Source of the DNA: an uncultured Magnetococcales bacterium
GTDB taxonomy: Bacteria > Pseudomonadota > Alphaproteobacteria > UBA2136
Length of the DNA: 64,000 nucleotides
NCBI GenBank assembly: GCA_963974105.1
Contig: CAXBBG010000001.1
Coordinates: 706,793 to 770,792 of the forward strand
Direction: 5' to 3'
The notes under the pieces were generated by a model, which saw only the letters and a program-made list of their open reading frames with translations, did not search any database and was not told the origin of the DNA. This document shows, piece after piece, positions 5,752 through 57,002 of this stretch (position 1 is its first letter; the number at the start of each line of letters is the position of its first letter). A program made the translations under genes and the position numbers.

Positions 5752-7455
5752 TTACCGTTCCTTATCTTCATACATGCCGTTATCAGCTATTTGTAGAAGG
5801 TCTTTTGCTGTTGTGGCGTCTGTAGGGAAGGTTGCTGTACCAATACTTACACCAATAGCTATATCTGTATCTACGATATTTGTTTTAAATGGCTTATTGA
5901 TGGCGGCCTTGATTTTATCTATGTAGAAGTTAGCTTTGTCTTTATCACATTTTATCAACACAACAAATTCGTCTCCGCCAATACGGGCAATTGTTGATGC
6001 TTTAGGAAGTGTAGCTGTTAAGCGGGTTGCCACTTCTTTTAATATTGCATCACCAGCTTCATGACCGTAAGTGTCATTTACAGGTTTAAATTTATTCAGA
6101 TCAAGGAAGAAGACTGTGAATTTAGCCTTGGATACTGTACCAGCTTTAAGGGCCGCCATGAAGGCTGTGCGGTTATCTAAGCCTGTTAATGCATCACTCA
6201 GGGCAACGTTCTGCCTAAACCTTCTTGAAACTTCTTGCGATATTTCTGAAACAAAAGCATCTCGACCTTTACCATCACGGATAACTTCTATTGCAGCTTC
6301 TGGAACATCTAAAAGTTCTGCAGCTGTTTTGACGCAGCCTTTGCAGTGTTCGATTGAGGCGATGACTGTTTCATAGTCGTCCATTCCGTGAGATACTTGG
6401 CGAATGGTTATATCCTCTTTTTGGATAGACATGGCACGTTTAATGTCATCCCAAAGTGAGCCTGTTCTTTCTTTCTTGACGGCGGTTCGTACGCGTAAAA
6501 AAACAGAAAGAGCAGATCCGAATGTAATAATAAAACATGCAATAAGGAGTTGATACCCACGTTCACCTTCAAACACACTTTCATTCTTAGAAAAAGCAGA
6601 TGTGAAGGATAAGAGCCATTCGGCAGCTAATGTTAATAAGGGTACAAATGCCATTAAAGCAATAATGTTATCCGACTTAATTTTATAACTCGCAGACCAA
6701 AAGAAATATCTATAAATAGATGATAGAAAAACGCCATACAAAAGACCTAACCAAATACTAGAAGGGTGCGCGTAGCGTGCAATGTCTGGGAAAAATGCTA
6801 AATACTCTGATTGCGGTAATACATATTGTTTGAATATTGAACCTATAATGGCAAATAGTAAAAACATCATACTTGTAATAAAGGAGACAAATCCAACAAC
6901 GCGCGCTTTATCACGCATATTACCACTTTCTTGAGCTTGTTCGGACTGTTTATGTGTTTCTGCAAAGATAACTTCTCCAGCCTGTACAATACCAGTTGCT
7001 AACGCTAAATAAAATATAACCCAAATAACGTCTCTGTCTTGAAGTGAGAAAAGGTAAGCTAGCCCAATACCTACAAAAACAAGCCCTATCAAGTCAGTTT
7101 TAGGTTGGGCGCGTTTAAAGAAGAATAAGGATGCAAGAAATGAAACAGGGATAGCAAATCTACCAAACAAGCTCATTTCTGTTGCGCTTACATAGCGCGT
7201 TAAGTAAACATCTAAAACAAATATGCCGATGGATGCAATGCCATAAAACCAAGTTGATGGGTTTTTTAATGTGTTTCCAACCAGTTTGCCTGGGCCAGCA
7301 AAAATTGATAATACAAGAGAGGCTGATACAATCGATATAGCTGCAAAAACAACAGCTTCTATATCAAAGTTCATAGAAGCAAAGCGAATGAGTATATTAA
7401 AGCAACTTGCTAGAATAACAAGTGTAAATGCTTGTAAAATTCCGGTTAAATACAT
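5752..7455 (-). CDS. membrane-anchored diguanylate cyclase (multi-TM N-terminus plus GGDEF domain), paralog 1
   Basis: The C-terminal GGDEF domain carries an intact RxGGDEF motif (ARIGGDEFVVLI) and DLNKFKPVNDTYGH. The N-terminal ~330 aa are hydrophobic. Confidence 0.85.
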   Translation of the reverse strand: MYLTGILQAFTLVILASCFNILIRFASMNFDIEAVVFAAISIVSASLVLSIFAGPGKLVGNTLKNPSTWFYGIASIGIFVLDVYLTRYVSATEMSLFGRFAIPVSFLASLFFFKRAQPKTDLIGLVFVGIGLAYLFSLQDRDVIWVIFYLALATGIVQAGEVIFAETHKQSEQAQESGNMRDKARVVGFVSFITSMMFLLFAIIGSIFKQYVLPQSEYLAFFPDIARYAHPSSIWLGLLYGVFLSSIYRYFFWSASYKIKSDNIIALMAFVPLLTLAAEWLLSFTSAFSKNESVFEGERGYQLLIACFIITFGSALSVFLRVRTAVKKERTGSLWDDIKRAMSIQKEDITIRQVSHGMDDYETVIASIEHCKGCVKTAAELLDVPEAAIEVIRDGKGRDAFVSEISQEVSRRFRQNVALSDALTGLDNRTAFMAALKAGTVSKAKFTVFFLDLNKFKPVNDTYGHEAGDAILKEVATRLTATLPKASTIARIGGDEFVVLIKCDKDKANFYIDKIKAAINKPFKTNIVDTDIAIGVSIGTATFPTDATTAKDLLQIADNGMYEDKER

Positions 7456-15495: not shown

Positions 15496-15612
15496 GATAA
15501 AAATGTGGGTGAATGACTGTACCACAAGCTTAGAGGAACGGCAGGTATTCAAGAGCGGTAAACGGTAGTAACTTTGCTGTATTGAATGCGGCCATGAAAT
15601 TATGCTAAGAAC

Positions 15613-17325
15613 TCATGAACTGTCCTTGTCTTCATACATATTCCCATCTGCGATTTTTAAAAGGTTTTTAGCTGTGGTGGCATCTGTTGGGTAGGTTGCT
15701 GTGCCAATGCTTACACCAATAGATATATCTGTGTCTACTGCACTTATTTTAAATGGTTTATCTATGGCTGTATTGATTTTATCTATGTATAGGTTAGCCT
15801 TTTCTTCGTCACACTTTATCAGCACAACAAATTCATCGCCGCCAATACGGGCAATAGTTGCTGTGTTAGGCAGCGTAGCTGTTAAGCGGTTTGCCACTTC
15901 TTTTAATATTTCATCACCTGCTTCATGACCGTAAGTATCATTCACAGGTTTGAACTTATCTAAATCAAGGAGAAATGTTGTGAATTTTGTTGCTTGTTTA
16001 CTTAATGATTTTATTTCTGCCATAAGTGAAGGCCTGTTATTTAAACCTGTTAAAGCATCACAGCTTGAAATATTACGTCTAAAACTTCTTGCCATTTCCT
16101 GTGAAGCATCCGCTGTTAGCGCTAAAGACCCTTTTGCTTCATAAAGTACAGTAATGGCATTTTTTGATATGCCAAGTAATTCTGATGCTTTTTCTTTGTC
16201 ATCTTCAGTATATTCTAACGTAGTTTGGATAATTTCATAATCATCCATAGCATTAGATACTTGCTGAATATTTGATTCTCCTCGCTTTACGGTGAGTGAT
16301 TTTTTAATAGTTTTTTTGAATGATTTAAAGTTTGTGATTTTTACGTTTTTTGTCAGCCTTAAATAAGCAGAATACCAAGCACCAGCTGCCATAATGAAAG
16401 TTAAGGCGAATAAGTAGATGCCTCTACTGCCATCGAATGTCATTTGGTTTGATTTGAATAATGGGTGGAAGGAAAGAAGCCACTCACAAGCAAGTGTTGT
16501 CAGGGGAATAATAGCAAGTACAGTTAGGACGTTTTCGGTCTTTATTTTATAGGTAGATGACCATTGGAAATAACGTGTAAACGGCGACAGGCATAGCCCA
16601 AAAATAAAGCCAGCCCAAATTGTTGGTGCATGTGTAAATTTTGATATTTCGGGTATGAATGAAAGTTGCTGCTTTAGTTCGGGTGTTAGCATATTCATTT
16701 TTATAAAACTTAAGCCAAGTGCAAGAATAAAGAATATCATGCTTGTAATAAAAGTTACAAAGCCAACGACACGTGCTCTGTCGCGTAAGTTCCCGGTTTG
16801 TTGGGCATTGACGGATTGCTTGTGTGTTTCTGAAAGCATAAAAACAACAGCCTGTAAAATGGCTGACAAAACACCTAAAATTAACACAGGCTTTAATGTT
16901 TCAATAGGCTGAAGGAATAAAACTCCTGTAAGTCCAACACACAAAGCAGCCACATTGAATAGGTCTGTTTTAACAGGTTTTCTGCTTAATAAAAGAAAGG
17001 CTAAAATAATAGAAACAGGTACAGCTATTCGGCTTAATACACTTAATTCTGTACCAGAAATATATTTAACGAGATAAATATCGACGGTGAATGTGCCCAC
17101 TAAAATGAAACCATAAAACCAAGTGGCAGGTGTTTTTAGAGTATCACTGACAAAGCGACCTGGGCCTGCAAAAATAGACAGTGTGAGCGCCGTCGCAATA
17201 AGATATGTGCAAGCAAATACGATAGGTTCAATATCAAACAATAAAGAGTTTACGCGAATGTAAACATTAAATAATGTTGTGATAACAACAATACCAAAGG
17301 CTTGAAGGACGCCAGTTAAGTACAT
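15613..17325 (-). CDS. membrane-anchored diguanylate cyclase (GGDEF), paralog 2
   Basis: Same architecture as 5752..7455, with colinear similarity along the whole length (ARIGGDEFVVLIKCD, DLDKFKPVNDTYGHEAGD). Confidence 0.85.
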   Translation of the reverse strand: MYLTGVLQAFGIVVITTLFNVYIRVNSLLFDIEPIVFACTYLIATALTLSIFAGPGRFVSDTLKTPATWFYGFILVGTFTVDIYLVKYISGTELSVLSRIAVPVSIILAFLLLSRKPVKTDLFNVAALCVGLTGVLFLQPIETLKPVLILGVLSAILQAVVFMLSETHKQSVNAQQTGNLRDRARVVGFVTFITSMIFFILALGLSFIKMNMLTPELKQQLSFIPEISKFTHAPTIWAGFIFGLCLSPFTRYFQWSSTYKIKTENVLTVLAIIPLTTLACEWLLSFHPLFKSNQMTFDGSRGIYLFALTFIMAAGAWYSAYLRLTKNVKITNFKSFKKTIKKSLTVKRGESNIQQVSNAMDDYEIIQTTLEYTEDDKEKASELLGISKNAITVLYEAKGSLALTADASQEMARSFRRNISSCDALTGLNNRPSLMAEIKSLSKQATKFTTFLLDLDKFKPVNDTYGHEAGDEILKEVANRLTATLPNTATIARIGGDEFVVLIKCDEEKANLYIDKINTAIDKPFKISAVDTDISIGVSIGTATYPTDATTAKNLLKIADGNMYEDKDSS

Positions 17326-17337
17326 GAATTTATCCCT

Positions 17338-17529
17338 TTATATATTCGATAGAATGATAAGTGTTGTTAAAACTGCGACCATAAAGGCAATAGATATAGC
17401 CCAAATGTAAATGTCACTTTGGCTTGCAGAGGAAATAATAAGCATATCCTCACGGCGTTCGTTTATAGGACGTCGGGTAGGTTTGTTTTTCCTACGCGCA
17501 GAGGTAGCTGTTTGTTTTGTTTTTGTCAT
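17338..17529 (-). CDS. small basic single-TM peptide, partner of DGC paralog 2
   Basis: Begins MTKTKQTATSARRKNKPTRRPINERREDMLIISS…, paralogous to 7455..7664. The 5' leader is also conserved between the two. Confidence 0.5.
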   Translation of the reverse strand: MTKTKQTATSARRKNKPTRRPINERREDMLIISSASQSDIYIWAISIAFMVAVLTTLIILSNI

Positions 17530-17675
17530 GATTTGCCCTGATTTTTATTCATCTATATAGTGTAGGTGTTTACAGAGCAGAATTCAATTGATGTTATAGA
17601 TTATTGTTTGATATTTATAGCTTATTACAGAGGCATGTCGCCTAAATTGCACTTTTATAGAAAAGGTTGTGTTTT

Positions 17676-24855: not shown

Positions 24856-25890
24856 TTACTTAAAATGGTGTTTTGTTTTATTTGCTATTGCGACAAGTGA
24901 TAACATAACAGGCACTTCAACTAAAACGCCCACTACGGTTGCTAAAGCTGCACCTGAATGTAATCCAAATAAACTAATTGCAACAGCGACAGCAAGCTCG
25001 AAAAAATTAGATGTGCCAATAAGAGCTGCAGGTGCGGCGGTTGTGAACGGTACACGCCATATATAGGCCCAAAAATATGTAATAAAAAAAATGCCATAGC
25101 TTTGAATAATTAAAGGGACAGCAATAAGCGCAATAACAAGAGGGTTGTTTAAAATAGTTTGTGCCTGAAAAGCAAATAGTAAAACAACAGTCGCTAAAAG
25201 CCCTATAATAGAAAAAGGTTTTAAATTTGCAGTAAAGCGTTCTATGTGCACATGATTATTGTTTTTGTTTAAATATCTACGTGTTATGTACCCAGCAGTT
25301 AGTGGTATTAAAACATATAAAACAGTAGAAAGAAGTAGTGTTTCCCAAGGTACGATAATGTTTGTCATATCAAGCAAAAAGGCTGCGATAGGTGCGAATG
25401 CAAAAATCATGATAATATCGTTGATAGATACCTGTACAAGAGTATAATTTGCGTCTCCACGTACTAACTGGCTCCAAACAAAAACCATGGCTGTGCAGGG
25501 CGCAACACCTAATAATATAACGCCAGCTATATATTCTTTAGCTGTTTCAGGTGAAATAAGTCCAGAGAATATATGCTCAAAAAATAATATTCCTAATGCT
25601 GCCATTGTAAAAGGTTTGACTAGCCAGTTTATAACAAGAGTGATACACAATCCTTTCGGTTTTTTACCAACATCTTTAATGCTAGAAAAGTCTATATTAA
25701 CCATCATAGGGTAAATCATTATCCAAATAAATATTGCAATAACAAGATTAACGCTAGCATATTCAACTTCTGCAATGGCTTGAAATATAGAGGGCGTTGC
25801 CACTCCAAGCCCGATACCTAAAACAATGCAAAATGAAACCCAGAGTGAAAGGTATTTTTCAAAAATACCAAGAGGTGATGTTTTTTCCAT
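24856..25890 (-). CDS. acr3: ACR3-family arsenite efflux permease
   Basis: [18 protein letters not shown]… with ten TM helices is typical of Acr3. I placed the start at MEK, where GGAAG sits upstream, rather than at the track's earlier Met. Confidence 0.85.
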
Positions 25891-25912
25891 AATATAAAAC
25901 TTCCAATGTTTG

Positions 25913-26644
25913 TTATTTTTGTGTACCAGCGTTTGCAATAGTGGCTATTTCTTTTGCTGTTTTTTCGCAACGTTCCGAGTAACGGTTTACAAGGTTTTGA
26001 GCCTGTGGGCGTAGTAAAATTGTAAAGCGCATAAGCTCCTCCATAACATCTACAATTCGTGCGTAATAATTAGAAGGTAACATACGCCCATCATCGTCAA
26101 ATTCTTTGTATGCCATTGCGACACTTGATTGATTTGGTATGGTAAACATACGCATCCAGCGCCCTAAAATACGCAATGTGTTAATGGTATTGAATGATTG
26201 AGACCCACCACTCACTTGCATAACAGCTAAGGTTTTTCCTTGTGTTGGGCGCACGCCACCCATATTTAAAGGTAAGTGGTCTATTTGTGTTTTCATGATA
26301 CCTGTGACGGTGCCATGACGTTCTGGACTGCACCATACTTGACCTTCTGACCATATGGAAAGTTCTCTAAGGTTTTTTACAGCAGGGTGTTCGCTATCAT
26401 TTTTATCATTGGGAAGTGGAAGGTCGGTTGGGTTGAAAATACGAACTTCTGCCCCAAGGTATGTTAAAATACGTGCAGCTTCTTCAACTGCAAGGCGTGA
26501 ATAAGAGCGTTCACGCAAGGATCCGTAAAGCATTAATATACGCGGAGGGTGGCCTTCAAAATTCATTCTTTGTAACTGCGAAGTATTCAAAGCGGGCATA
26601 TTGTTTATATCGGTTACATTGTGTAGGTATGGGTTCATAGGCAC
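25913..26644 (-). CDS. arsH: ArsH NADPH-dependent FMN reductase
   Basis: Flavodoxin-like NADPH:FMN reductase of ArsH length and pattern ([18 protein letters not shown]…). Confidence 0.85.
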
Positions 26645-26946
26645 TTCCCTTCTGCATTATTTTGCTTACTACAACAGTTTTCTTTTAAATAGTGGATAAG
26701 GTTTTCGATGGATTGGATGTTGGCTGTATAAATAATGGAGCGACCTTTTTTTTGTGATGTAATAAGCCCTGCTTGAGATAGGTGTGTTAAATGAAAAGAA
26801 AGGCTGTTATGCGGCATGTTTAAGGTTTTGCTTATTGTGCCGGCTGCTGTGCCTGTGTGTCCATATTCAACCAATATTTTAAACACCTTAAGGCGTGTTT
26901 CTTGAGAAAGTGCTGTAAAAGCCTCTGTTGCATTTTTTATATCCAT
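26635..26946 (-). CDS. arsR: ArsR/SmtB-family metalloregulator
   Basis: Winged HTH ([13 protein letters not shown]…[29 protein letters not shown]). It overlaps the arsH start. Confidence 0.8.
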
Positions 26947-27279: not shown

Positions 27280-28980
27280 GTGATAAATGGTTTTAGGGGG
27301 AGTGTATTTAAAGCAACGTCTTTTGTTGTTTTATTTGCCTGCATAAACCTAGTTATTATATCTGCATTTGCAGCACCTCAGCTTCCAGGCTCTGCTGATG
27401 TAAACCGTGTGAAACCGCTACCCGAAATAAAAATTGAGAAACAAAAGCCCGCAGAAATAAAAATTCCTAAAGAATCTAGTTTTGTTAAAATACCCGAATC
27501 TGCTAAAGCCGTTAGATTCGTATTAAATGATATTTTACTAACAAATGCACATGTTTTTAGCGAAAATGAGCTCGATGACATCTACAGGCCATTTTTGGGT
27601 AAAGAAGTAACTTTAGATTATATTTGGCAATTTGCTGGGCAAATAACCGAACGCTATCGCCAGAAAGGTTTTTTCTTGTCACGCGCCTATGTGCCTTTGC
27701 AAGAAATTAATAATGGTGTGGTAAGTATTAACATTGTAGAAGGTTATATTTCTGATATTGAAATGACAGGTGACAGTGTTGATAGTAAAATTATTAAAAA
27801 TACTTTAGCTAAACTAAAGGCTGAAAAGCCACTTAATTCTAAGGTTTTAGAATCTACCATCCTTAGGCTTAATGAATTGCCTGAACTTACATTTAAGGGT
27901 TACCTTGAACCTGCCGCAGGTAAAACAGATCAGTCGGTTAAACTTACTTTAAACGTCACACGTGAAAAAAGTGAAACGTTTATGCAGGTTAGTAACTATG
28001 GTTCACTTTACTTAGGGCCATGGCAAGCAATGATAAGTAACAATTCAAATCTTATTGAACATCAAAATACATCGCTCACGCTATTAAGCAGCATCCCAGC
28101 TAAAGAACTGAAATATGTTTCTTTAGCACAAACAATACCGCTTAATGACAAATATGACTTCCAAATAAACACTGCCTATGCGACATCAAGCCCTGGTGAA
28201 GAATTAGAAGTTAATGATATCATAAACACCTCAACATCAATTGGGTTTAGCTTCATTTATAAGCCTATTAGACAACGACAAAAGAACTTAACATTGTCGA
28301 TTGAATTTGACTACAAAGACACAAATGGTGACATTTTACAAAACACCCCCTTAACGAAAGATAACATGCGTGCAATAAGGGTTCATGCAAACTTTGATAC
28401 AAATGACCGCTTTAATGGCTATAACTATATTGACCTAGGCTACAACCAAGGTATTGACGTCTTAGGTGCAAGTAACAAGGGTGACTTAAACTTATCGCGT
28501 GCTGAAGCAGAGCCTAACTTTAGTAGCGTTACTGTTCGTTACATTCGCCAACAATGGTTAAGCACGAATTGGCTTACTCTTGCTGGGGTAAGCGGTCAGT
28601 GGGCATCGGGTCCACTATTTTCTTCAGAAGAATTTGGATATGGTGGGCAGTCATTTGGTCGTGCGTATGATTCATCAGAAATTACGGGTGACCATGGCCT
28701 TGCTGGTATGGTTGAATTGAGATACTTTGGTCTTAAACCGTGGAAGGGTATCCAAACAAAGCCATTTGCTTTCTACGATCTTGGTAAAATATGGAATGAA
28801 GACAAAGATAGTAACAGTATTACCGCTTCATCAGCAGGATTTGGCTTCCATAGTGAACACAAGTCAAATACCAGCGCAAGCTTTACCATGGCATGGCCTT
28901 TAACCAAAAAAATTGATAACCCTATTTACGGAAACAACAAATCACCAAGGGCAATGCTACAAATAAGTTATAAACTGTAA
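27280..28980 (+). CDS. TpsB (ShlB/FhaC-family) two-partner secretion outer-membrane transporter
   Basis: POTRA region (…LNDILLTNAHVFSENELDDIYRPFLGK…INIVEGYISDIEMTGD) followed by a C-terminal beta-barrel ending in …QISYKL. Starts with GTG. Confidence 0.8.
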   Translation: MINGFRGSVFKATSFVVLFACINLVIISAFAAPQLPGSADVNRVKPLPEIKIEKQKPAEIKIPKESSFVKIPESAKAVRFVLNDILLTNAHVFSENELDDIYRPFLGKEVTLDYIWQFAGQITERYRQKGFFLSRAYVPLQEINNGVVSINIVEGYISDIEMTGDSVDSKIIKNTLAKLKAEKPLNSKVLESTILRLNELPELTFKGYLEPAAGKTDQSVKLTLNVTREKSETFMQVSNYGSLYLGPWQAMISNNSNLIEHQNTSLTLLSSIPAKELKYVSLAQTIPLNDKYDFQINTAYATSSPGEELEVNDIINTSTSIGFSFIYKPIRQRQKNLTLSIEFDYKDTNGDILQNTPLTKDNMRAIRVHANFDTNDRFNGYNYIDLGYNQGIDVLGASNKGDLNLSRAEAEPNFSSVTVRYIRQQWLSTNWLTLAGVSGQWASGPLFSSEEFGYGGQSFGRAYDSSEITGDHGLAGMVELRYFGLKPWKGIQTKPFAFYDLGKIWNEDKDSNSITASSAGFGFHSEHKSNTSASFTMAWPLTKKIDNPIYGNNKSPRAMLQISYKL

Positions 28981-29046
28981 CAATTTACAGAAACATAAGA
29001 GTCAGAAACAAAAAAGATAAATTATTAAAGGTAATTATAAGTATAT

Positions 29047-32000
29047 ATGTTTGAAAACAAGATGTTAGGGGTGTATTTTCTATGTGGCGTTAGCATGCTA
29101 GCGCTTTCACCTATGTCTTCTGTTTATGCCAACCCAGCAGGTGGTGTTATTTCGGGTGGTGCTGCCACTATAACATCCAATGCAAATAAACTAGATATTC
29201 ACCAACAAACAAACCGAGCTGTCATTGACTGGCGCAGCTTTGATATTGACGTTGGTGAACATACAGAATTTCACCAACCTTCTTCAAGTGCCATTGCTTT
29301 AAACCGTGTGAACAGTGTTGACCCTTCCCAAATAATGGGTAAATTAAGTGCCAATGGTAATGTTGTTCTCATCAACCCAAATGGTTTGTTTTTTGGCGCA
29401 AGTTCACGTATTGACGTAAACGGCCTACTTGCAACTACTGTTGATATTGATACAGACGACTTTATGAATGGGAGCATGCATTTTAACAAGCCAGGTAAAT
29501 CTGGTGCTGGCATTATAAACCAAGGGCTTATTACAGCAAAAGAAGCTGGGTTAGTCGGTCTCGTTGCGCCAAATGTTATAAATAGCGGTATTATAGAAGC
29601 GAAGTACGGGCAGGTACATCTTTCATCAGCTGATAGTATGGTTGTGGATTTTTATGGAGACGGTTTATATCAACTTAAAGTAAGCGACGCAGTTAAATCG
29701 CAAATTGTTCAAAATACAGGTACGCTTATTTCTGAAGGCGGCGTTATTGCTATCACCGCAGCTTCAGGTAAGGACATTGTTAATAGCCTTATCCACATTG
29801 AAGGTGAAGTTTTAGCGCCAACCATTACTCAAAAAGAAGGTCGTATTATTATTGCGGCGGCAGGTTCTAACGCTGTAGAAGGTAACATAACTGCAAGCAA
29901 AGGTGTTAAAAACGGTAAGTCTACCGTTGTTTTATCAAAAGCTTACATAGACGCTTCTGGAGATGAAACAGGCGAAAAAGGTGGTGTGGTGGAAATTACA
30001 GCCGACCAAATATTTTTAACAGATAATTCAGTTCTTAATACAAACGGGCATTCAGTTGAAAATTATAACGAAGCCGCTATAGGAACAGCTACAATGACTG
30101 CAAGCAAAGAAGTGCGCAGTGCCGATGAATTTCTAGCCCATGAAAACCGTGTGGGAGGTAGCATTAAAATAGGTGGCGACTATCTTGGTAAAGGTGACAC
30201 AGCAGCGGCTGAATATGTCTATGTTTCACATGACAGTTACATTATTAATGATACCATTCAAAGTGGTGACGCTGGGCGCACAATTGTTTGGGCCGATAAC
30301 ACCACTGAATTTAGCGGTAACGTCTTTGCCCGTGGTGGTTTAAAAGGAGGTCACGGTGGTTTCCTTGAAACTTCTGGTAAAATCAATTTACTGGCAGGGG
30401 GCTATGCTGACCTTCAGGCAAAAAGTGGATTTAAACAAGGTACATATTTATTAGACCCTTCCGTTATTAATATTTACGGTAACATTGACTCAGCTTTTAC
30501 AACTTCAAACCTTATTAACCACTGGGACTTTGAAGAGGGTTCAGGCGCAACAGTAACTGATCAAATAGGCAGCGATGACGGCGCAATAACGGGTGCCGTA
30601 TATAATGCCGACACACCAAGTATCCTTATGCCAACAAGTAATGACTACAGTCTAGATTTTTCAAATGACACCGTGAATTTTGGTGACATTAACGCCATAG
30701 AACTAGCACCTGTAACTGTTTCATTCTGGGCAAAATCAGACACAACAAATGCAGACCAAGGATTCTTATACAAAGGGATTCATAGTACAAACCAACCACT
30801 GCTTATCTGGCGTGATAATGCTGTAGGTTCTGGTCAACAAGCTGGTAACAGTAATGCCATTTCAGTGCTTGTTTATGACGGCGCAACTCAGGATTGGGTT
30901 TCGACACCAACAAATAGCTTTAATGACACAGACTGGCACCATGTAGCTGCAACACTTGACCCTGTAACAAACAACCAAATAGAAATATTTATTGATGGTG
31001 TCTCAATGCAAACAGGTGCAATGGCAAGCAATGGTATTAGAGCTAACGCAAATAACTTAACAATGGGTAAAGCAACGTCAGGCGGTACAGGTTTAACAGG
31101 TCACATGGACGATATGCGTATTTACAATACAGTACTTGATGCTAAAAACATTGAAGAATTAAGCGGTAATGCCTTTACGGTAAAAGGTTTAGAGCTGATG
31201 TCGCAAACAGCAGATATTATCCTGCAAGCTGATAATACTATCAACCTTGACTTTGACGGCGAGCAATTAGACCTAGCCAATGATAAGAGTATTACCTTGC
31301 AAACAATAAATGGCAACATTACAGACAATTCAGCTGGCACTATACGCACCAATAGAACGGGTGCGGGTGGTAACATCACAATGACTGCTGGTGGTTCTGG
31401 TAGCATTAACCTTGATACGACTAACTTAGAAGCATTAAGTGGCGGTGTTGTTAATCTTTCTGCTGGTGGTAATGTTAACCTTAAGCAAGTAAGCGCTTTA
31501 AACCTTAATAGCGTAACAGGTAATACTGTAACCATACAAACGACAGGTTCAACTGCCGATATAACGCTTAATAATACAATTACAGCTAGCAATAGTGGTA
31601 ACGCCATAATTATGGCTTCAGGTGATGATTTTATTAACAATGTCGGTGCAACTGTATTGAATACGACTGACATGAATGGTAGATGGTTGGTTTATAGCGA
31701 GACACCAACGGCTAATACTCGTAACAGCTTATTACCAGACTCAAGTGACTATGGTTTTACCTATGCGACACTTGCACCAGGGGCTGTTACGGCAGGTAAC
31801 CACTTTATCTATTCAAACGCGACTAGGCCAACCCTTACATATACTGTAAATGATAGTAGCCTCGAATATGGAGATACCTATGGTGGCTCATCAATAAGTT
31901 CTGTTTCTGGTCTATTAACAGGTGATACATTGGCGAACATTGGCTTAACAGGCTCGAACTTTTTCACAACCACCTATACAGCAGGTGATAATGCCGGCGT

Positions 32001-32619
32001 CCATTCAAATGTATTAACATCAACAGCTGGCACATTGGCGAACCAACTTGGTTACTCATATGCCTTCAATGCTGGCGACTTAACAGTTAACAAAGCCGAC
32101 TTAACAGTAACACTTATTGACAATGCACCAACAAAGGTAGAGGGCAATGTCAATCCAATTTTTGACCTTTCGTATACAGGCTTCAAGCTTGCTGACAACG
32201 CATCAGTTGTTGATACAATTAATGTGACAACACTGGCCGATACATCAAGCGGTGCGGGGGTATACAATATTGATATTGCAGGTAGTGATAACAACTACAA
32301 CCTACTTATAACAAATCCATCAGGTAAATTAACTGTCACCGCCAAGCCTGCAAGTAGTATACCTACGAAAGCTCAGATTTCAGCAAAACCTACAATAAGC
32401 GTTATTAATACCGCTACCAATAAGTCTATAAACAACTCAAATATAAACGTTCAATACAACGGTGCTAATAATTTATATGAAGAGGCAACTATTCTTGATG
32501 GGCTTATAAACATACATCCACGTGTTGCAGCCTTGTTCAAATTAAAGGGAGCAGACACACAAGTGACAACTGGTGACAGTAGGTGGAAACGTGACACCGT
32601 ATTACGTGGGCTTGAATAA
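29047..32619 (+). CDS. TpsA exoprotein with an N-terminal TPS domain, an internal LamG-like domain and a C-terminal MBG-like repeat
   Basis: TPS domain (NPAGGVISGGAATIT…IDWRSFDIDVGEHTEF…ANGNVVLINPNGLFFG). LamG-like segment (DWHHVAATLD…IFIDGVSMQTG…DDMRIYNTVL). MBG-like segment (YGDTYGG…GDLTVNKADLTVT). Confidence 0.85.
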   Translation: MFENKMLGVYFLCGVSMLALSPMSSVYANPAGGVISGGAATITSNANKLDIHQQTNRAVIDWRSFDIDVGEHTEFHQPSSSAIALNRVNSVDPSQIMGKLSANGNVVLINPNGLFFGASSRIDVNGLLATTVDIDTDDFMNGSMHFNKPGKSGAGIINQGLITAKEAGLVGLVAPNVINSGIIEAKYGQVHLSSADSMVVDFYGDGLYQLKVSDAVKSQIVQNTGTLISEGGVIAITAASGKDIVNSLIHIEGEVLAPTITQKEGRIIIAAAGSNAVEGNITASKGVKNGKSTVVLSKAYIDASGDETGEKGGVVEITADQIFLTDNSVLNTNGHSVENYNEAAIGTATMTASKEVRSADEFLAHENRVGGSIKIGGDYLGKGDTAAAEYVYVSHDSYIINDTIQSGDAGRTIVWADNTTEFSGNVFARGGLKGGHGGFLETSGKINLLAGGYADLQAKSGFKQGTYLLDPSVINIYGNIDSAFTTSNLINHWDFEEGSGATVTDQIGSDDGAITGAVYNADTPSILMPTSNDYSLDFSNDTVNFGDINAIELAPVTVSFWAKSDTTNADQGFLYKGIHSTNQPLLIWRDNAVGSGQQAGNSNAISVLVYDGATQDWVSTPTNSFNDTDWHHVAATLDPVTNNQIEIFIDGVSMQTGAMASNGIRANANNLTMGKATSGGTGLTGHMDDMRIYNTVLDAKNIEELSGNAFTVKGLELMSQTADIILQADNTINLDFDGEQLDLANDKSITLQTINGNITDNSAGTIRTNRTGAGGNITMTAGGSGSINLDTTNLEALSGGVVNLSAGGNVNLKQVSALNLNSVTGNTVTIQTTGSTADITLNNTITASNSGNAIIMASGDDFINNVGATVLNTTDMNGRWLVYSETPTANTRNSLLPDSSDYGFTYATLAPGAVTAGNHFIYSNATRPTLTYTVNDSSLEYGDTYGGSSISSVSGLLTGDTLANIGLTGSNFFTTTYTAGDNAGVHSNVLTSTAGTLANQLGYSYAFNAGDLTVNKADLTVTLIDNAPTKVEGNVNPIFDLSYTGFKLADNASVVDTINVTTLADTSSGAGVYNIDIAGSDNNYNLLITNPSGKLTVTAKPASSIPTKAQISAKPTISVINTATNKSINNSNINVQYNGANNLYEEATILDGLINIHPRVAALFKLKGADTQVTTGDSRWKRDTVLRGLE

Positions 32620-32801
32620 CTTTCAAAGTCAATTTCAACAAATATATACCCTGCCTCCTTATTCTGAGACCAAAAAAGAAATTAGTCTTTTGAGGCTGAA
32701 GATCAGAAGGGTGATTATTAATATAATTCCAAATGACTTTGGGTTGAAATTCACACCATAAAACCCCATAAAATTATAACACTAAAATTAAAGGCGCTAA
32801 G

Positions 32802-33206
32802 ATGGCGGCAAGACCTATGGTTAAGCCGCTTGCTAAAGTGACGAAGGGTGTGCGTGTAAAAGTTACTACAGTAAAACGTAATAAGTTGGTTGACTCTGTT
32901 AAGTTTGAGCCTAAGCAAATTCAAGCTAAATATAAACATAGCTCTAAAGCTTATGGTTTGGAAGGCAATTATAATAAAGCTAACGCTGCCAAGTTTGAAT
33001 CCTCTATTAAAAGTCATATGAAGAACCTTGATACAAAGGTTATAAAAGGCACGTATCTTAAAAAACCTGCAAAACACTTTTGCAATAAGGAAACAAATGT
33101 TAATGCTGTGACGAAAGAAGGTAAGTTTGTGACTACAAATAAACCTACTGAAAAACAAGTGATGCATTTATTAAAAAGTGGAAATTTAGGTGGAGGTTCA
33201 AATTGA
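32802..33206 (+). CDS. small lysine-rich basic hypothetical protein, candidate toxin
   Basis: 134 aa and very K-rich. RBS AAAGG upstream. Its stop overlaps the next ORF's start by 4 nt (ATGA). Confidence 0.4.
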   Translation: MAARPMVKPLAKVTKGVRVKVTTVKRNKLVDSVKFEPKQIQAKYKHSSKAYGLEGNYNKANAAKFESSIKSHMKNLDTKVIKGTYLKKPAKHFCNKETNVNAVTKEGKFVTTNKPTEKQVMHLLKSGNLGGGSN

Positions 33207-33517
33207 TGGATAAAAAAGCTCTTGAGTTGATATATTTGATAGAGGAAACTCTCACTGGGAAAATGAGACCTAATGACCTTCATGATAAGTTTTGGTCAGA
33301 TTTTTGGCCTAATACTAAAAATGATTGGCCAAACAAATCCTCGGAGGAAATTCAACAGCTAATAGCGTTAGATATTTTTGACGCCTTTGAGTGCTTTGAT
33401 GGTGAACATGCTATAACTGAAGCCAATGATGTACCATATGAACTAACAGAGGATGAATTCCTGAAAAAATGTAAAGAATTCCTGCCTAAGTTAAAAAAAG
33501 CCGTTAAGAAAATATGA
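33203..33517 (+). CDS. small acidic hypothetical protein, candidate immunity partner
   Basis: 104 aa and rich in D/E/W. Translationally coupled to 32802..33206. A terminator follows. Confidence 0.45.
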   Translation: MMDKKALELIYLIEETLTGKMRPNDLHDKFWSDFWPNTKNDWPNKSSEEIQQLIALDIFDAFECFDGEHAITEANDVPYELTEDEFLKKCKEFLPKLKKAVKKI

Positions 33518-33527
33518 CGAACTAAAA

Positions 33528-33552
33528 GCACCTCTTCGGAGGTGTTTTTTTT
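33528..33552 (+). terminator. Rho-independent terminator
   Basis: GCACCTC-TTCG-GAGGTGT hairpin followed by a T8 run. Confidence 0.55.
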
Positions 33553-33676
33553 ACTAAATTTTGGCAACACACAGTTAATAATTTGTTTCAACTCCTGTCT
33601 AAGTGGAGCCTTGATTATGAAAACCCGATTAACAGAACACCGCCTATGCGAAGTAAGTAGGTTTTTTTGTGTGAAT

Positions 33677-34930
33677 TTACCTCACCACCAGCAACTCATC
33701 CCAACAACTGGTATAAGCAGGGCTTTGGTGCTGGCACAGGTTGCGCCATTTGCCGTTGGGGTTGGAAATGCCGAAGCGTAAGGTGTGTTTACCCATGGCG
33801 CTGTTAAGTTTGTCGATAGCGCCCATTAAGCTTTCACTGCGCTTGTTATCAACCACGCTGAATAAACTTGGCTGGTGCGTGCCTTGCTCTTGAATGCCGT
33901 GGAGGCATATGCCCGCTTTTTTGAACTCTACACCCGCTTTGAATATCTCATTGATGCCCTTTATGGCGGCTTTGGTTAGCACGGCGGTGTCACTTGTTGG
34001 GTCATCTAGGGTGATAACTGTAGAGTTTGCGTAATATTCACCTTTAAAGGGGCTAGAGCCTGCGTAAACTGTTATCATGCGTGCTTCTGTGCTTTCGCCC
34101 CGAAGTTTTTCTGCGCCTATGGCGGTGAATGTGCCAACGGCTTCTTTCAGGGTTTTAATATCGCTTACTGGGTTACCAAAAGAACGAGAGCTGATAATCT
34201 GTTTACGGTGTTCTGGCTCTTCACCAAAACTGTAGCAAGGCGTACCTTGTAACTCTAAAACCGTTTTTTCCGATACCACGCTTGTAATGTCACGCACTTG
34301 GGCAGGGTTGCACTGTGATAACTTCCACGCCGTGTTTAGTCCTAAACCTGTAAACTTTTCATTTAAGCACCTGCCAACACCCCACACGTCACCCACATCC
34401 ATACGCTGAAGGACAGAGCGCCTTGCTTGCAAGCTATCCATCAAATAGACACCTTCGGCTTGTTCGTATTTCTTCGCTATATTTGAAGATGCCTTGGCGA
34501 GCGTTTTCGTTGGTGCAATACCGATAGATACAGGAATACCCGTCCATTGTTCAACTTGTTTTCTTATACGCTGACAAAGTGGTTTTAGTTCATGTTCTGG
34601 AATGCCAGAAAGGTCTAGAAAAGCTTCATCCACTGAGTAAACCTCAATAGCAGGGGCCATGTCACGCAAAACGCTCATCACACGACGGCTCATCTCCCCA
34701 TAAAAGGATAAATTACCGCTGATACATTCGACATTATGTTCCGCCACCAGCTTTTTCATTTTAAAAACAGGCGCACCCATTTTAATGCCCAGCGCTTTCG
34801 CTTCGTTAGAGCGAGCCACAGCACAACCATCATTCGATGACAGCACAATAACAGGGCGGTTATTCAGGCTTGGCCTAAACACCCGCTCACAGGATACAAA
34901 AAAATTGTTACAGTCGACTAAGGCGTACAT
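33677..34930 (-). CDS. umuC: Y-family translesion DNA polymerase UmuC
   Basis: The N-terminus MYALVDCNNFFVSCERVFRP…VVLSSNDGCAVARSNEAKALGIKMG is colinear with E. coli UmuC (MFALCDVNAFYASCETVFRP…). Full length, 417 aa. Confidence 0.9.
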   Translation of the reverse strand: MYALVDCNNFFVSCERVFRPSLNNRPVIVLSSNDGCAVARSNEAKALGIKMGAPVFKMKKLVAEHNVECISGNLSFYGEMSRRVMSVLRDMAPAIEVYSVDEAFLDLSGIPEHELKPLCQRIRKQVEQWTGIPVSIGIAPTKTLAKASSNIAKKYEQAEGVYLMDSLQARRSVLQRMDVGDVWGVGRCLNEKFTGLGLNTAWKLSQCNPAQVRDITSVVSEKTVLELQGTPCYSFGEEPEHRKQIISSRSFGNPVSDIKTLKEAVGTFTAIGAEKLRGESTEARMITVYAGSSPFKGEYYANSTVITLDDPTSDTAVLTKAAIKGINEIFKAGVEFKKAGICLHGIQEQGTHQPSLFSVVDNKRSESLMGAIDKLNSAMGKHTLRFGISNPNGKWRNLCQHQSPAYTSCWDELLVVR

Positions 34931-35670
34931 GGATATATTATAATAGGCTTACTATCACTCAATGGAAATGCTGTTACAAAAACTTCTGGAAAGTCAGATA
35001 GGTCCTTCAAGTGTTCTTGTATTAAAGATGAAATTTCATGATCATCTATGCACAGTTTTATTACACCCATAGCATTGTCGTTACAATAAACAATGAGCCT
35101 CACATCATCAGGGTAACCTTTAGCTGATTTCTTTTTATAAGCGCCTTTAAATCGTTGAAAGGCCATATCATCCAAGTCATAATTTGAATTTGCTATGTGT
35201 GCATGTTCCCACGATGATTCTAACTCCAAACTCACACGCTTAAAGTGCTTGATAGACCCTGTACATGAAACATGCCTATGCAATGAAAACTTAAGCATTC
35301 TGAGTCTCGCATCTGTTCCATCAACAGTGCTCACTATTTGATAACCTTTGCCACCAATGTAAATATCAGCTCCATTTTCATCATTTTGATTGATTTGAAA
35401 AATAGCATATTGCTTTTCTAAAGCAATAGAATAGACAGCCTCAAGTTCCTCAAACCATTGCTCTCTTTTGCTAAAATCCCCTGACTGGAAGTATTCATGA
35501 CGTCTATAGGCACTTTCAAACACAGAATTGCGTATTTCATAACCTTTCATCAAGAATTCACACAAATCTTTACCAGTGAACTTTTTCAGCAAATTCTCTT
35601 CGGAAAAATGCTTTTCTAAATCATCAAAAGTGAACACGAGCCTAAACCCCTTTAATAATATTAGTGACAA
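34918..35670 (-). CDS. hypothetical protein encoded between umuD and umuC
   Basis: 250-aa ORF on the same strand. It overlaps the umuD stop by ~29 nt using a TTG start, and overlaps the umuC start by 13 nt. An internal ATG (M41) is an alternative start. No motif I recognise. Confidence 0.55.
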   Translation of the reverse strand: MSLILLKGFRLVFTFDDLEKHFSEENLLKKFTGKDLCEFLMKGYEIRNSVFESAYRRHEYFQSGDFSKREQWFEELEAVYSIALEKQYAIFQINQNDENGADIYIGGKGYQIVSTVDGTDARLRMLKFSLHRHVSCTGSIKHFKRVSLELESSWEHAHIANSNYDLDDMAFQRFKGAYKKKSAKGYPDDVRLIVYCNDNAMGVIKLCIDDHEISSLIQEHLKDLSDFPEVFVTAFPLSDSKPIIIYPCTP

Positions 35671-36199
35671 CGCCCCACATGCCTAGCTCTTCACCTTCGG
35701 TAAGTTCTATGTTGGGAATGTCGTCATTTTCTGCTATGAGCGTTACACGGCCACCGAAACGCTCATAGCGCTTAACTGTTAGGTCCCCATCAACGACAGC
35801 TATGATGATTTTGCCGTTTTTAACTTCTAAGCTTCTATCAACAATTAACAGGTCACCATCGTCGATACCCGCGTTAATCATCGACTTACCACTTGCGCGC
35901 ACGAAGAACGTCGCCGCAGGGTGCTTTATGAGGTGTTCGTTGAGGTCGAGTTTTCTGTCCACATGGTCACTCACCCCGAAAGGTGTACCTGCTGAAACCG
36001 TTCCCTGCATTAAAGGAATATTATAATCAGCCTTACCCGCAAGGAATGACTTTACATCATCCACCTTATGTTCAGGCACGCGCATAACCTTGGTTGCACT
36101 ACCGTACTGCCCCGTCCCCTTCGGGCGACCTGCACCCATTCTTTTTCCACCGTGATTTTTCATAACTTGATTATTGTTACATTTAATTGAAATTATCAA
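35642..36199 (-). CDS. umuD: UmuD-like S24 peptidase with an N-terminal basic AT-hook-like extension
   Basis: The C-terminal domain is colinear with E. coli UmuD ([40 protein letters not shown] vs [40 protein letters not shown]), with the Ser and Lys catalytic dyad present. The N-terminus carries [14 protein letters not shown]. Confidence 0.85.
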   Translation of the reverse strand: [185 protein letters not shown]

Positions 36200-56822: not shown

Positions 56823-57002
56823 TTTGTTACCCTTAATATAATAATCATACACACAATATAGCTCGCTATCATACAAGCATACAAACTTATAGGTGTGGAT
56901 GATAATAAAAAAATGACATAAGGCAATGCGTTGTAGATATATAATGTTGGGATGTGACAAAAACTCCCATATTGCTTATGGTAAGCTTATTTATTACATT
57001 TC

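Follow-up and report, generated by a model that had tools for sequence, protein, structure and literature searches.

Introduction

Colicin D and its immunity protein ImmD, encoded by plasmid pColD of E. coli (PDB 1V74, 1TFO and 5ZNM), belong to a toxin and an immunity family that are both well known. The Colicin_D family is characterized by the motifs [KH]K, Hxx[ED], [ST] and [TS]xxK, with K607/K608, H611, D614 and S677 in colicin D (Zhang et al. 2012, PMC3482391), and His611 is the general base (PMC9990079). Members of the ColD family cut either the anticodon loop of tRNA-Arg or the acceptor stem.

Related domains occur in several other settings. The genuine CdiA proteins EC3006 and Kp342 use Colicin_D-family domains (PMC9990079). 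A CdiA has long FHA-1/FHA-2 repeats and a PT-VENN domain before its variable C-terminal region (CT), and is followed by cdiI; orphan modules of CDI systems were described by Poole et al. (2011). In Bacteroidota, Myxococcota and others (L007-L017), a ColD domain forms the tip of Rhs/YD-repeat toxins of 780-2626 aa and is followed by a small immunity gene, which encodes a different family, of ~80 aa; this family matches nothing in Pfam, and hhalign shows no relationship with ImmD. Finally, other uncultured bacteria carry short ColD/ImmD pairs (L006, 195 aa; L015, 276 aa), in which an overlapping Colicin_immun gene of ~100 aa comes directly next.

Here we describe a locus from a marine uncultured bacterium, a diderm flagellate represented by a Tara Oceans MAG contig with ~39% GC. 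The locus is located in a 64-kb window (the whole stretch of DNA that was analysed). Four ORFs were confirmed in it, namely those of TpsB, TpsA, ORF3 and ORF4, all on the + strand. We consider, with a probability of about 0.78, that they make up two separate things, an adhesin two-partner secretion (TPS) pair and a self-contained cassette of the ColD/ImmD type that is independent of it. The main value of the analysis lies in the correct annotation of a previously unannotated pair. It also warns that a small toxin pair 3' of a TpsA need not be a CDI orphan module.

An adhesin-type TPS pair

The first gene (27280..28980) encodes a 566-aa outer-membrane transporter, TpsB, with a signal peptide, a POTRA_2 domain at aa 80-155 (Pfam, E 1.6e-19) and a ShlB barrel (E 1.4e-17). 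The adjoining gene (29047..32619) encodes TpsA, an exoprotein of 1190 aa which also has a signal peptide. Its TPS domain covers aa 37-275 (nt 29155-29871; Pfam E 1.3e-30, TIGR01901 E 2.7e-21) and bears an NPNG motif at aa 110. This domain is followed by a Laminin_G_3 domain at aa 540-702 (nt 30664-31152; Pfam E 6.5e-20) and by MBG_2, matched in two stretches, at aa ~1019-1096 (nt 32101-32334; Pfam E 1.9e-13). No domain could be assigned to the C-terminal tail of ~95 aa after MBG_2. Among PDB sequences, the best relatives of TpsA are EtpA, which is the closest (E 1.3e-52), HxuA and the HMW1 adhesin.

An Omp85-type TpsB with POTRA and a ShlB/FhaC barrel, next to a TpsA with a signal peptide and a TPS domain, is the composition of a T5bSS pair, and by their domains tpsB-tpsA are an adhesin-type TPS pair. 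TpsB would thus export a beta-helical TpsA of 1190 aa that displays a lectin-like LamG domain together with MBG domains. The sequence-only reading had already named TpsB and TpsA, and had described the latter as short, adhesin-like, equipped with LamG and MBG and without obvious FHA repeats; the Pfam matches and the EtpA, HxuA and HMW1 relatives bear this out.

The 1190-aa TpsA is not organized as a CdiA. At E<=1, Pfam gave no Fil_haemagg or PT-VENN family, the VENN string is absent, FHA-1/FHA-2 repeats are missing and the protein lacks its own cdiI. No TpsA relatives were found when GTDB genomes were scanned and, therefore, synteny is testable from the side of the downstream cassette only.

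This cassette, of 0.76 kb, lies directly 3' of tpsA, between tpsA and a convergent umuC. The adjoining umuDC genes are a common cargo of mobile elements. The 182-nt tpsA-ORF3 intergenic region (32620..32801, + strand) has a weak sigma-70-like site at 32750-32777, although the count of promoter-like sites in this gap is not above chance, and an SD-like AAAGG at 32790-32794, 7 nt before the ATG of ORF3. The terminator search found none in it, so that tpsA and ORF3 may be co-transcribed and, in this genome, functionally coupled to some degree.

ORF3 encodes a putative toxin of the colicin D family

ORF3 (32802..33206) potentially encodes a 134-aa tRNase toxin of the ColD family, with a pI of 10.2 and 26 lysines. 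It has its own start (ATG at 32802, with the SD-like AAAGG upstream), and an in-frame stop lies 10 codons upstream. The predicted product consists of a basic leader, disordered in the AF2 model at aa 1-18 (32802-32855) and ~18-23 aa long as a whole, a linker at aa 19-38, and the Colicin_D domain at aa 39-120 (32916-33161). The ~20 residues of the linker have their homologue in the stretch of colicin D that directly precedes the tRNase domain, and no Pfam or NCBIfam domain was found in aa 1-38.

The match to the Pfam family Colicin_D (PF11429) reached 48 bits, for a cut-off of 25 (E 1.6e-12), and covered profile positions 1-81 of 84. With phmmer, ORF3 retrieved the colicin D chains 1v74_A and 5znm_A (E 1.5e-7), its KYKH being aligned to K608-H611. 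The catalytic equivalents are K43, K45 and H46 for K608, K610 and His611 of colicin D, T111-T112 for S677, and K114 for K680, and in an alignment the K/K/H and S/T..K motif is kept across 17 family members. ORF3 nevertheless departs from colicin D at some positions: the K607 equivalent is Ala, Asn stands for Trp679, and Leu replaces the Arg that GTYR has in most members. Asp614 has no equivalent either (HSSKAYG, with a one-residue insertion), but this Asp is also missing in the ImmD-paired toxins of L006, L015 and L016. An insertion, 'xxF', ahead of the KQ(I/L)Q motif is common to ORF3, colicin D and the ImmD-paired toxins, and is absent from the Rhs-linked group, whose tRNase domains are 35-40% identical.

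Structure prediction, which the sequence-only reading had put forward for both small proteins, agrees with this assignment. In the AF2 model of ORF3 (pLDDT 63), N-terminal helices lead into a four-stranded antiparallel sheet, and the model can be superposed on colicin D. The top 5 PDB matches given by Foldseek are all colicin D tRNase (E 2.7e-5 to 5.8e-4, probability 1.0), and the domain-only entries align with TM 0.74-0.81 and rmsd 2.3-3.3. As judged from sequence and model, ORF3 belongs to the Colicin_D tRNase family with its BECR fold. The same evidence suggests that it cleaves tRNA, i.e. that it would act as a BECR-fold tRNase.

ORF3 has only a leader, a linker and a catalytic domain and, for this reason, is closer to the fragment of colicin D that is processed and imported than to a full bacteriocin; it approximates what FtsH processing yields (PMC4026351). 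The basic N-terminal leader is novel with respect to colicin D. The short pairs of L006 and L015 have N-terminal regions unrelated to that of ORF3, and the L015 toxin bears a Sec signal where ORF3 has a Lys-rich, non-hydrophobic leader.

ORF4 encodes a divergent ImmD-type protein

ORF4 (33203..33517) follows immediately, its start overlapping the ORF3 stop, which is the placement of an immunity gene behind a ColD-family toxin. Its product has a pI of 4.8, as expected from the succession of a Lys-rich basic and an acidic ORF noted in the sequence-only reading. The junction reads TTGATG, with the TGA stop of ORF3 at 33204-33206. Two starts can be considered: TTG at 33203, which gives a TTGA overlap of 4 nt and a protein of 104 aa and is homologous in position to the ATG of the paralogue in L002 (see below), or ATG at 33206, which gives a 1-nt overlap and 103 aa. 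The 4-nt overlap originally proposed is thus retained if the TTG start is used, but not as ATGA, a sequence that the paralogue in L002 truly has. A GGAGG Shine-Dalgarno (33192..33196, + strand) lies inside the end of ORF3, 6-9 nt upstream of the start, and points to translational coupling.

ORF3 and its paralogue differ with a dN/dS of 0.16 (dS 0.71), and ORF4 and its own with a dN/dS of 0.19 (dS 1.23). This purifying selection indicates that both are real genes and speaks against untranslated ORFs, an outcome that the sequence-only reading had allowed for.

The ORF4 protein had no match in Pfam even at E<=10, BLASTP against a canonical ImmD-family neighbour gave nothing, and a search of PDB sequences with the ORF4 profile did not reach ImmD. 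Modelled by AF2 from the single sequence (pLDDT 75), the protein forms a helical bundle, for which Foldseek returned generic helical bundles, with no significant PDB match and ImmD unlisted. The assignment of ORF4 rests, therefore, on its homologues and on profile-profile comparison. Two homologues, P0005 (19.1 bits, E 0.002) and P0008 (16.8 bits, E 0.011), align with PF09204 over the full length, just under the 22-bit cut-off. When the ORF4 family was compared by hhalign with four bona fide PF09204 proteins, each matching PF09204 at E 3e-8 to 5e-17 as well as the ImmD chains 1tfk_B and 1v74_B, a probability of 96.1% was obtained (E 2.8e-9, 85 columns), while negative controls gave 0.1-0.4%, the unrelated immunity family among them 0.1%. 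With the ORF4 profile as query, an exhaustive HMM search across 1.84 billion representatives retrieved only three real relatives; a further candidate, P0007, was rejected as a low-complexity repeat artefact.

The genomic arrangement is also in line with this assignment. Toxin followed by immunity gene, as in the window, is found in L002, L004, L006, L015 and L016, and a canonical PF09204 gene follows a 42%-identical relative of the toxin. From these comparisons, ORF4 is a very divergent ImmD-family (Colicin_immun) immunity protein, so divergent that it does not reach the Pfam threshold, and it extends the family beyond the reach of the Pfam model. Fold and family of the toxin, its Lys-x-Lys-His and S/T..K motifs, the gene order and the superfamily of the immunity protein are thus the same as in colicin D/ImmD. 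ORF4 would neutralize ORF3 and, by homology, may do so by binding the toxin and occluding its active site. The pair had been proposed as a possible nuclease-type toxin with its immunity protein, which is confirmed here at the level of families, and neither ORF had been placed in a known family, which no longer holds: ORF3 is a Pfam Colicin_D protein and ORF4 effectively a remote ImmD.

Limits of the cassette and its paralogous locus

The cassette (32790..33551, + strand) is the sole stretch of the locus homologous by blastn to L002, with 78.8% nucleotide identity over 763 nt. It ends at a strong, bidirectional intrinsic terminator (33524..33552), AAAAG-CACCTC-TTCG-GAGGTG-T8, which would stop transcription there and which is conserved as the 3' boundary of every L002 cassette. 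A 19-nt imperfect inverted repeat brackets the cassette, with its left arm at 32747..32765 and its right arm, with 2 mismatches, at 33660..33678, abutting the umuC stop codon; 0.01 such partner matches are expected by chance in the window. The repeat was looked for in L002 and is absent. Comparison of tpsA with 32620-33700 by blastn gave chance 10-11-mers only, with no shared stretch that could serve as a recombination handle.

L002 holds the nearest relative pair, 83% (toxin) and 63% (immunity) identical. No TpsA was found within 10 kb on either side of it; instead, its neighbourhood includes an integrase, Fic and HipA/HTH genes. It is a tandem array. Its units have a conserved 5' junction and are set apart by the terminator that also ends the window cassette, and their conserved spacer contains GTTAAAC/GTTAAGC (fitting GTTRRRY). 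Its toxin ORFs have TTG only, without ATG or SD. The cassette-0 toxin matches the solved CDI toxin 8ey4 (E 3e-9).

The leader, SKGxKATARxxxKPLAKxTKGVR (~23 aa, Lys-rich), is carried by the ColD toxins of the window and of L002 cassette 1. The same leader is found in L002 cassette 2 on an unrelated toxin body of 138 aa with a different partner gene. Its copies differ by synonymous changes (e.g. Arg CGT versus AGA), a sign that the protein sequence is under constraint. No other leader-bearing protein was found when 5.8 billion protein clusters were searched by word index (45-48 aa queries), a search of limited power for a 23-aa motif, and the DNA patterns of leader and terminator were absent from viral contigs.

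A conserved N-terminal part combined with alternative toxins, each with a cognate immunity gene, is the organization of polymorphic toxins, here observed in three cassettes at two loci. A recognizable secretion or trafficking domain (Sec signal, TPS, PAAR, LXG, MuF etc.), as polymorphic toxins have, is not present in ORF3. These features suggest a small, rare, lineage-specific family of short polymorphic-toxin cassettes.

Probable independence from the adhesin, and alternative explanations

Since the same cassette occurs elsewhere, in L002, without TpsA, it is considered independent of the adhesin. It would then be a small mobile module, serving as a weapon or for addiction, and not a part of the adhesin system. 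Its biological role may be that of an antibacterial effector, for which we see about even odds, with the leader as a tag and export by a route yet to be found. A largely silent reservoir is an unlikely role.

The strongest competitor is an intracellular type II toxin-antitoxin (TA) or abortive-infection module, in which ORF3 would never be exported and ORF4 would be a labile antitoxin, serving to stabilize an island or to cleave tRNA upon phage infection. The absence from ORF3 of a signal peptide, of a hydrophobic segment (maximum 19-aa hydropathy 0.45) and of any recognized trafficking domain is what would be expected of such a module, as are the compact operon with its own terminator and the company of both copies: HipA/HTH, Fic and an integrase around the paralogue, umuDC beside the window cassette. 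BECR RNases, moreover, include the RelE-type TA toxins (PMC3482391). Like ORF3 and ORF4, RelE-type systems combine a small basic BECR RNase and a small acidic partner in a bicistronic operon, but they belong to a different BECR clade, usually have the antitoxin gene first and a DNA-binding domain in the antitoxin, and show no shared-leader polymorphism. In the window the toxin gene comes first and ORF4 has no DNA-binding domain. ORF3 and ORF4 had no meaningful match in PADLOC or PHROG, and the lack of any such match or of a Pfam match for ORF4 speaks against an antitoxin. The Colicin_D/ImmD members that have been characterized are all antibacterial toxins destined for export, and for colicin-like BECR proteins a main association with exported effectors has been reported (bioRxiv 10.64898/2026.08.28.747851). 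Finally, the re-use in tandem of one leader on toxin bodies that differ, each with its cognate partner, is a polymorphic-toxin hallmark. An intracellular module is thus somewhat unlikely, yet deserves serious attention; if true, a colicin-type nuclease/immunity pair would clearly have been recruited as a TA module.

The pair had been likened, as one example, to orphan CdiA-CT/CdiI modules. On this reading it would belong to the adjacent TPS as a displaced toxin tip with its immunity gene, forming a reservoir that could recombine onto the TpsA C-terminus for contact-dependent delivery. As in the orphan modules of Poole et al. (2011), small toxin and immunity ORFs lie close to TpsB/TpsA, here directly 3' of tpsBA with no terminator in between, and the Colicin_D fold is that of some CdiA-CTs. 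L002 is also orphan-like, being a tandem array with a conserved 5' junction and no ATG/SD, one unit of which matches a PT-VENN CDI toxin. In the window, however, ORF3 has no VENN, no retained cdiA sequence and nothing derived from tpsA, and it does have initiation signals, unlike the L002 paralogues. Its nearest relatives are not beside any TpsA; association with TpsA in relatives, on which the proposal had been made to depend, is thus lacking at the nearest pair, as seen from the cassette side only. The TpsA is of the adhesin type and devoid of FHA repeats, PT-VENN and cdiI. No parent gene carrying the leader was found at either leader-bearing locus, and the cluster search, with its limited power, found no other protein sharing it. 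We regard this origin as improbable.

A gene cassette of the integron or another site-specific type, with the conserved inter-cassette element as an attC-like recombination site, was also considered. It would account for the tandem, promoterless-looking cassettes of L002, their GTTRRRY-fitting spacer, the tyrosine recombinase gene that lies, in opposite orientation, 2.4 kb upstream of this array, and the 19-nt inverted repeat around the window cassette. The recombinase, however, scores only 42 bits on the integron-integrase model TIGR02249 (cut-off 265), looks like a generic Xer or phage integrase and is separated from the array by unrelated genes. The spacers fold only as the short terminator hairpin, with ends unpaired, unlike attC R''/R', and L002 lacks the inverted repeat. 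The integrase score and the folding of the spacers largely refute this explanation, which is very improbable.

A classical diffusible bacteriocin of the colicin D, klebicin D or pyocin type shares the cytotoxic and immunity families and the gene order, but is refuted on architecture and hardly credible, given a chromosomal 134-aa ORF3 without receptor-binding, translocation or central domains, no lysis gene, no SOS (LexA) box (CTGT-N8-ACAG) visible in the 182 nt upstream of ORF3, and no tblastn match of ORF3 in plasmid and phage collections.

Possible function of the leader

What is less ordinary about the cassette is its format: a 134-aa toxin comparable to the imported fragment of colicin D, with a short basic leader that is re-used on another body. 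The ~23-aa leader might be a previously undescribed trafficking tag, and the cassettes a new class of very small polymorphic toxins, with interchangeable bodies and their cognate immunity genes in terminator-delimited units, exported or loaded by an apparatus so far not tied to cargo of this sort. This proposal is speculative and rather doubtful. If true, it would provide a new minimal architecture for interbacterial toxins and a short tag for protein delivery. The 64-kb window holds no T6SS, eCIS or T4SS genes, nor was any machinery for the export of a leader-tagged toxin seen there. One conceivable apparatus in this genome is the co-transcribed TpsB/TpsA adhesin, in the role of a non-covalent carrier; type Vb secretion would then have a 'cargo effector' mode for the first time.

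Otherwise the window is ordinary chromosomal DNA and includes rpoD, ETF genes, flagellar genes, MacB/TolC and ars genes.

ORF3 encodes a putative colicin D-type tRNase

The sequence-only reading had proposed four ORFs at this locus and all of them are present on the + strand: tpsB (27280-28980), tpsA (29047-32619), ORF3 (32802-33206) and ORF4 (33203-33517). As had been stated, the product of ORF3 is strongly basic, with 26 Lys among its 134 aa and a pI of 10.2. It scores 48 bits on the Pfam profile Colicin_D (PF11429), whose cut-off is 25, with an E-value of 1.6e-12 and coverage of positions 1-81 out of 84, and it also matches the colicin D (ColD) chains of the PDB (E 1.5e-7). In the alignment, K43-Y-K45-H46 of ORF3 corresponds to K608-Y-K610-His611 of colicin D, whose general base is His611 (PMC9990079), while T111/T112 and K114 correspond to S677 and K680. 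The ORF3 positions aligned to the catalytic motif are conserved across 17 family members, and they agree with the greater part of the Tox-ColD motif (Zhang et al. 2012, PMC3482391). ORF3 has Leu for the Arg of GTYR and Asn for Trp679, and it lacks an equivalent of Asp614, its sequence there being HSSKAYG with one residue inserted. Since this Asp is also absent in three relatives paired with genes of the ImmD (colicin D immunity protein) type, its loss is treated, with a lasting caveat, as probable subgroup variation and not as a sign of inactivity.

The structure prediction called for in the earlier reading gave an AlphaFold model (pLDDT 63, three input sequences) in which a disordered N-terminus (residues 1-20, pLDDT <50) is followed by three helices, a meander of four strands and a last helix at the C-terminus. 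The best five PDB matches of this model were all entries of the colicin D tRNase domain (E 2.7e-5 to 5.8e-4, probability 1.0), with TM values of 0.74-0.81 against the domain-only entries. Ahead of its KQ(I/L)Q motif, ORF3 has an insertion that colicin D and the ImmD-paired toxins also have and the Rhs-linked toxins lack.

ORF4 encodes a putative divergent immunity protein

The 4-nt ATGA overlap reported between the two small ORFs was confirmed as an overlap, but the sequence at the junction is TTGATG. The ORF3 stop codon TGA lies at 33204-33206, and ORF4 starts either at the TTG at 33203 (4-nt overlap, homologous to the ATG of its paralogue) or at the ATG at 33206 (1-nt overlap), with GGAGG at 33192-33196 ahead of both candidates. 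Compared with their paralogues on the Tara Oceans scaffold L002, both ORFs are under purifying selection (ORF3: dN/dS 0.16, dS 0.71; ORF4: dN/dS 0.19, dS 1.23), which identifies them as genuine genes.

The ORF4 product is acidic (pI 4.8), in agreement with the earlier description. Its sequence has no match of its own in Pfam or the PDB, and when 1.84 billion representatives were searched exhaustively with a profile, only three real relatives turned up, two of which match Colicin_immun (PF09204) over their full length just under threshold (E 0.002 and 0.011). A profile of the ORF4 family (n=4) was compared by hhalign with a reference profile made of four proteins, each passing PF09204 at E 3e-8 to 5e-17; the result was a probability of 96.1% (E 2.8e-9, 85 columns), and an unrelated immunity family of about 80 aa, used as a control in the same test, gave 0.1% and 0.4%. 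The best PDB hit of the reference profile was ImmD itself (1tfk_B, 1v74_B). A canonical PF09204 gene comes after a 42%-identical relative of ORF3. Taken with the insertion shared by the toxins, the hhalign result, the subthreshold relatives and this pairing indicate that ORF4 is most probably a strongly diverged ImmD-type immunity protein. Its own AlphaFold model, a helical bundle built from the single sequence, did not match any PDB entry significantly. The proposed toxin-immunity pair is thus supported by profile and model matches, as a tRNase of the ColD family and a divergent ImmD-type partner. Neither family had been recognised in the sequence-only reading, and both could be identified, that of ORF4 remotely.

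The TPS pair and its relation to the cassette

The 566-aa TpsB has a signal peptide, a POTRA_2 domain (E 1.6e-19) and a ShlB/FhaC barrel (E 1.4e-17). The 1190-aa TpsA carries a TPS domain (E 1.3e-30; TIGR01901, E 2.7e-21) with NPNG at residue 110, a Laminin_G_3 domain at residues 540-702 (E 6.5e-20) and, when its C-terminal third was scanned alone, two MBG_2 stretches (E 1.9e-13, the best at about residues 1019-1096). Among solved structures, the adhesin EtpA is closest to the TPS domain (E 1.3e-52), followed by HxuA and the HMW1 adhesin. These matches bear out the claim of a two-partner secretion pair with an adhesin-like TpsA. Filamentous-haemagglutinin repeat and PT-VENN families were sought in TpsA and none was found at E<=1, which for the repeats agrees with the earlier reading; the VENN string is absent too.

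The nearest relative pair, adjacent and overlapping on L002 (also L003 and L005), has a toxin 83% and a partner 63% identical to those of the window. No TpsA or TpsB occurs within 10 kb on either side of it, so the expected association with TpsA in relatives was not found there; its neighbours encode a tyrosine recombinase, Fic, HipA with an HTH protein, NUDIX enzymes and acetyltransferases. At this locus, the window and L002 share homologous DNA only over 32790-33551 (78.8% over 763 nt), from 12 nt before the ORF3 ATG to the end of the terminator. No resemblance of this cassette to the tpsA gene was found, and the ORF3 frame meets a stop codon 10 codons before its ATG. Orphan modules as described by Poole et al. 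(2011, PMC3150448) lie downstream of cdiBAI, carry VENN or retained cdiA sequence and lack initiation signals. The cassette shares their position alone, and TpsA itself does not qualify as a CdiA. Because the L002 pair lacks TpsA, the homology is bounded to the cassette and the orphan features are otherwise wanting, the suggested orphan CdiA-CT/CdiI tie to TpsA is not supported; by this cassette-side comparison, the ORF3-ORF4 pair is apparently an autonomous cassette, which happens to be situated between tpsA and the convergent umuC. No terminator was found in the tpsA-ORF3 interval, and read-through transcription is therefore possible. The interval also has a weak promoter-like site at 32750-32777, although such sites are no more frequent there than chance predicts.

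An imperfect 19-nt inverted repeat (arms 32747-32765 and 33660-33678, 2 mismatches, chance expectation 0.01 matches in the window) flanks the cassette. Its left arm overlaps a -35-like hexamer upstream of ORF3, and the right one lies directly against the stop codon of umuC. The repeat is not present in L002, and may be left over from a mobile insertion cassette or have arisen by chance.

A family of leader-tagged cassettes

On L002 the ColD/ImmD pair is the middle unit (cassette 1) of a tandem array of three toxin-partner units (L002:8880-11075), and the same array occurs in L003 and L005. Cassette 0 encodes a toxin of 119 aa with homology to a CDI toxin of solved structure (8ey4_A, E 3e-9) and then a 95-aa Cys-rich partner, and cassette 2 a 138-aa basic protein and then a 75-aa acidic partner; no family was found for the cassette 2 toxin or for any of the three partners. 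The cassette 0 toxin also matches the C-terminal extension of the phage portal family phrog_15528 (E 1e-4). A terminator hairpin, CACCTC-TTCG-GAGGTG with flanking A and T runs, ends every L002 unit and the window cassette.

A leader of about 23 residues, SKGxKATARxxxKPLAKxTKGVR, opens ORF3 and the toxins of L002 cassettes 1 and 2, the latter being unrelated in sequence past the leader. Leader differences include synonymous changes (e.g. Arg CGT versus AGA) and the leader's dN/dS is about 0.4, so that the peptide, and not DNA alone, is conserved. Polymorphic toxin systems are defined by one N-terminal part that is combined with interchangeable toxin bodies, each with its cognate partner (PMC3482391); this leader, however, is much shorter than the trafficking domains described so far, and it is not hydrophobic and is predicted to be disordered. 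It was found in no other protein of the window or of any fetched locus, in no viral contig, and in no other protein by a word-indexed search, of limited power, of 5.8 billion clusters. The novelty is modest: both families are already known, and it is the minimal leader-tagged format, so far limited to three cassettes, that is unusual.

Most of the toxin domain's other relatives, with 35-40% identity, form the tips of Rhs-like proteins of 780-2626 aa with a different immunity family, and a few are short proteins followed by an ImmD-type gene (195 aa at locus L006; 276 aa, with a signal peptide, at L015). Directly downstream of the ColD-tipped Rhs-like toxins, at loci L007-L018, lies a conserved putative immunity family of about 80 aa (consensus ..EEALVLLEWL..FQDQAEERVLWDLEA..), with no Pfam match and, according to hhalign (0.4%), no relationship to ImmD. 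In Bacteroidota and other phyla, this family seems to be what Rhs-linked ColD domains are mainly paired with.

Window segments 15608-17597 and 5760-6120, in GGDEF-domain genes, show 81-83% nucleotide identity to a gene of the same kind at L002:1780-3769, and contigs bearing the two paralogous cassettes are also found together in one ENA assembly, with matching coverage (2.2x and 2.3x). For these reasons, the two cassettes may come from one genome or from very close relatives.

Possible mechanism and role

By homology, ORF3 would be a metal-independent tRNA endonuclease with His46 in the role of general base. Colicin D itself cuts tRNA in the anticodon loop, and CdiA-CT EC3006 cuts it in the acceptor stem. 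ORF4, whose translation would be coupled to that of ORF3 on one transcript, would bind and block ORF3 as ImmD does colicin D. During import, nuclease colicins are cut in an FtsH-dependent manner some 30 residues ahead of the catalytic domain (PMC4026351). As ORF3 residues 19-38 align to colicin D residues ~581-603, a stretch that directly precedes the tRNase domain, ORF3 resembles the processed, cytoplasm-entering fragment and not the whole colicin.

The polymorphic format and the export of all characterised members of the family favour an exported antibacterial effector, with a probability of about 0.5. Tentatively, the absence of a secretion signal and the island-like context could instead point to an intracellular addiction or abortive-infection module. 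A mostly silent reservoir, suggested by L002 copies that have TTG starts only and no SD, is rather improbable.

ALTERNATIVES tested were integron cassettes, a classical bacteriocin, a defence system or phage family, and plasmid or phage relatives. No meaningful match to a defence system or phage family and no plasmid or phage relative was found. A classical bacteriocin was ruled out on architecture. Integron cassettes were rejected: on the integron-integrase model the L002 recombinase reaches 42 bits against a cut-off of 265, and the only fold found for the spacers is a terminator hairpin.

Genomic surroundings

The 64-kb window is ordinary chromosome; it carries rpoD, ETF genes, flagellar genes, a sigma-54 activator, MacB/TolC, GGDEF proteins, ars genes and umuDC, and it contains no T6SS, eCIS or T4SS genes. 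A 2050-aa ORF (50808-56960, - strand) with no match in Pfam (E<=1e-5) or NCBIfam adjoins the sigma-54 activator and flagellar genes. Between the umuC-like (IMS, 33677-34930) and umuD-like (Peptidase_S24, 35642-36199) genes, and overlapping both, lies a 250-aa ORF (34918-35670, - strand) that belongs to no family in Pfam, NCBIfam, PADLOC or PHROG; a three-gene order umuD-X-umuC of this kind is unusual. With 47% GC, umuC lies well above its surroundings. An arsenic-resistance-like cluster (24856-26946, - strand) adjoins the TPS pair on its upstream side, in divergent orientation, and encodes an ArsR-type HTH protein, an ArsH-like FMN reductase and an ACR3/SBF permease. Together with umuDC downstream, this cluster suggests a variable, island-like region.
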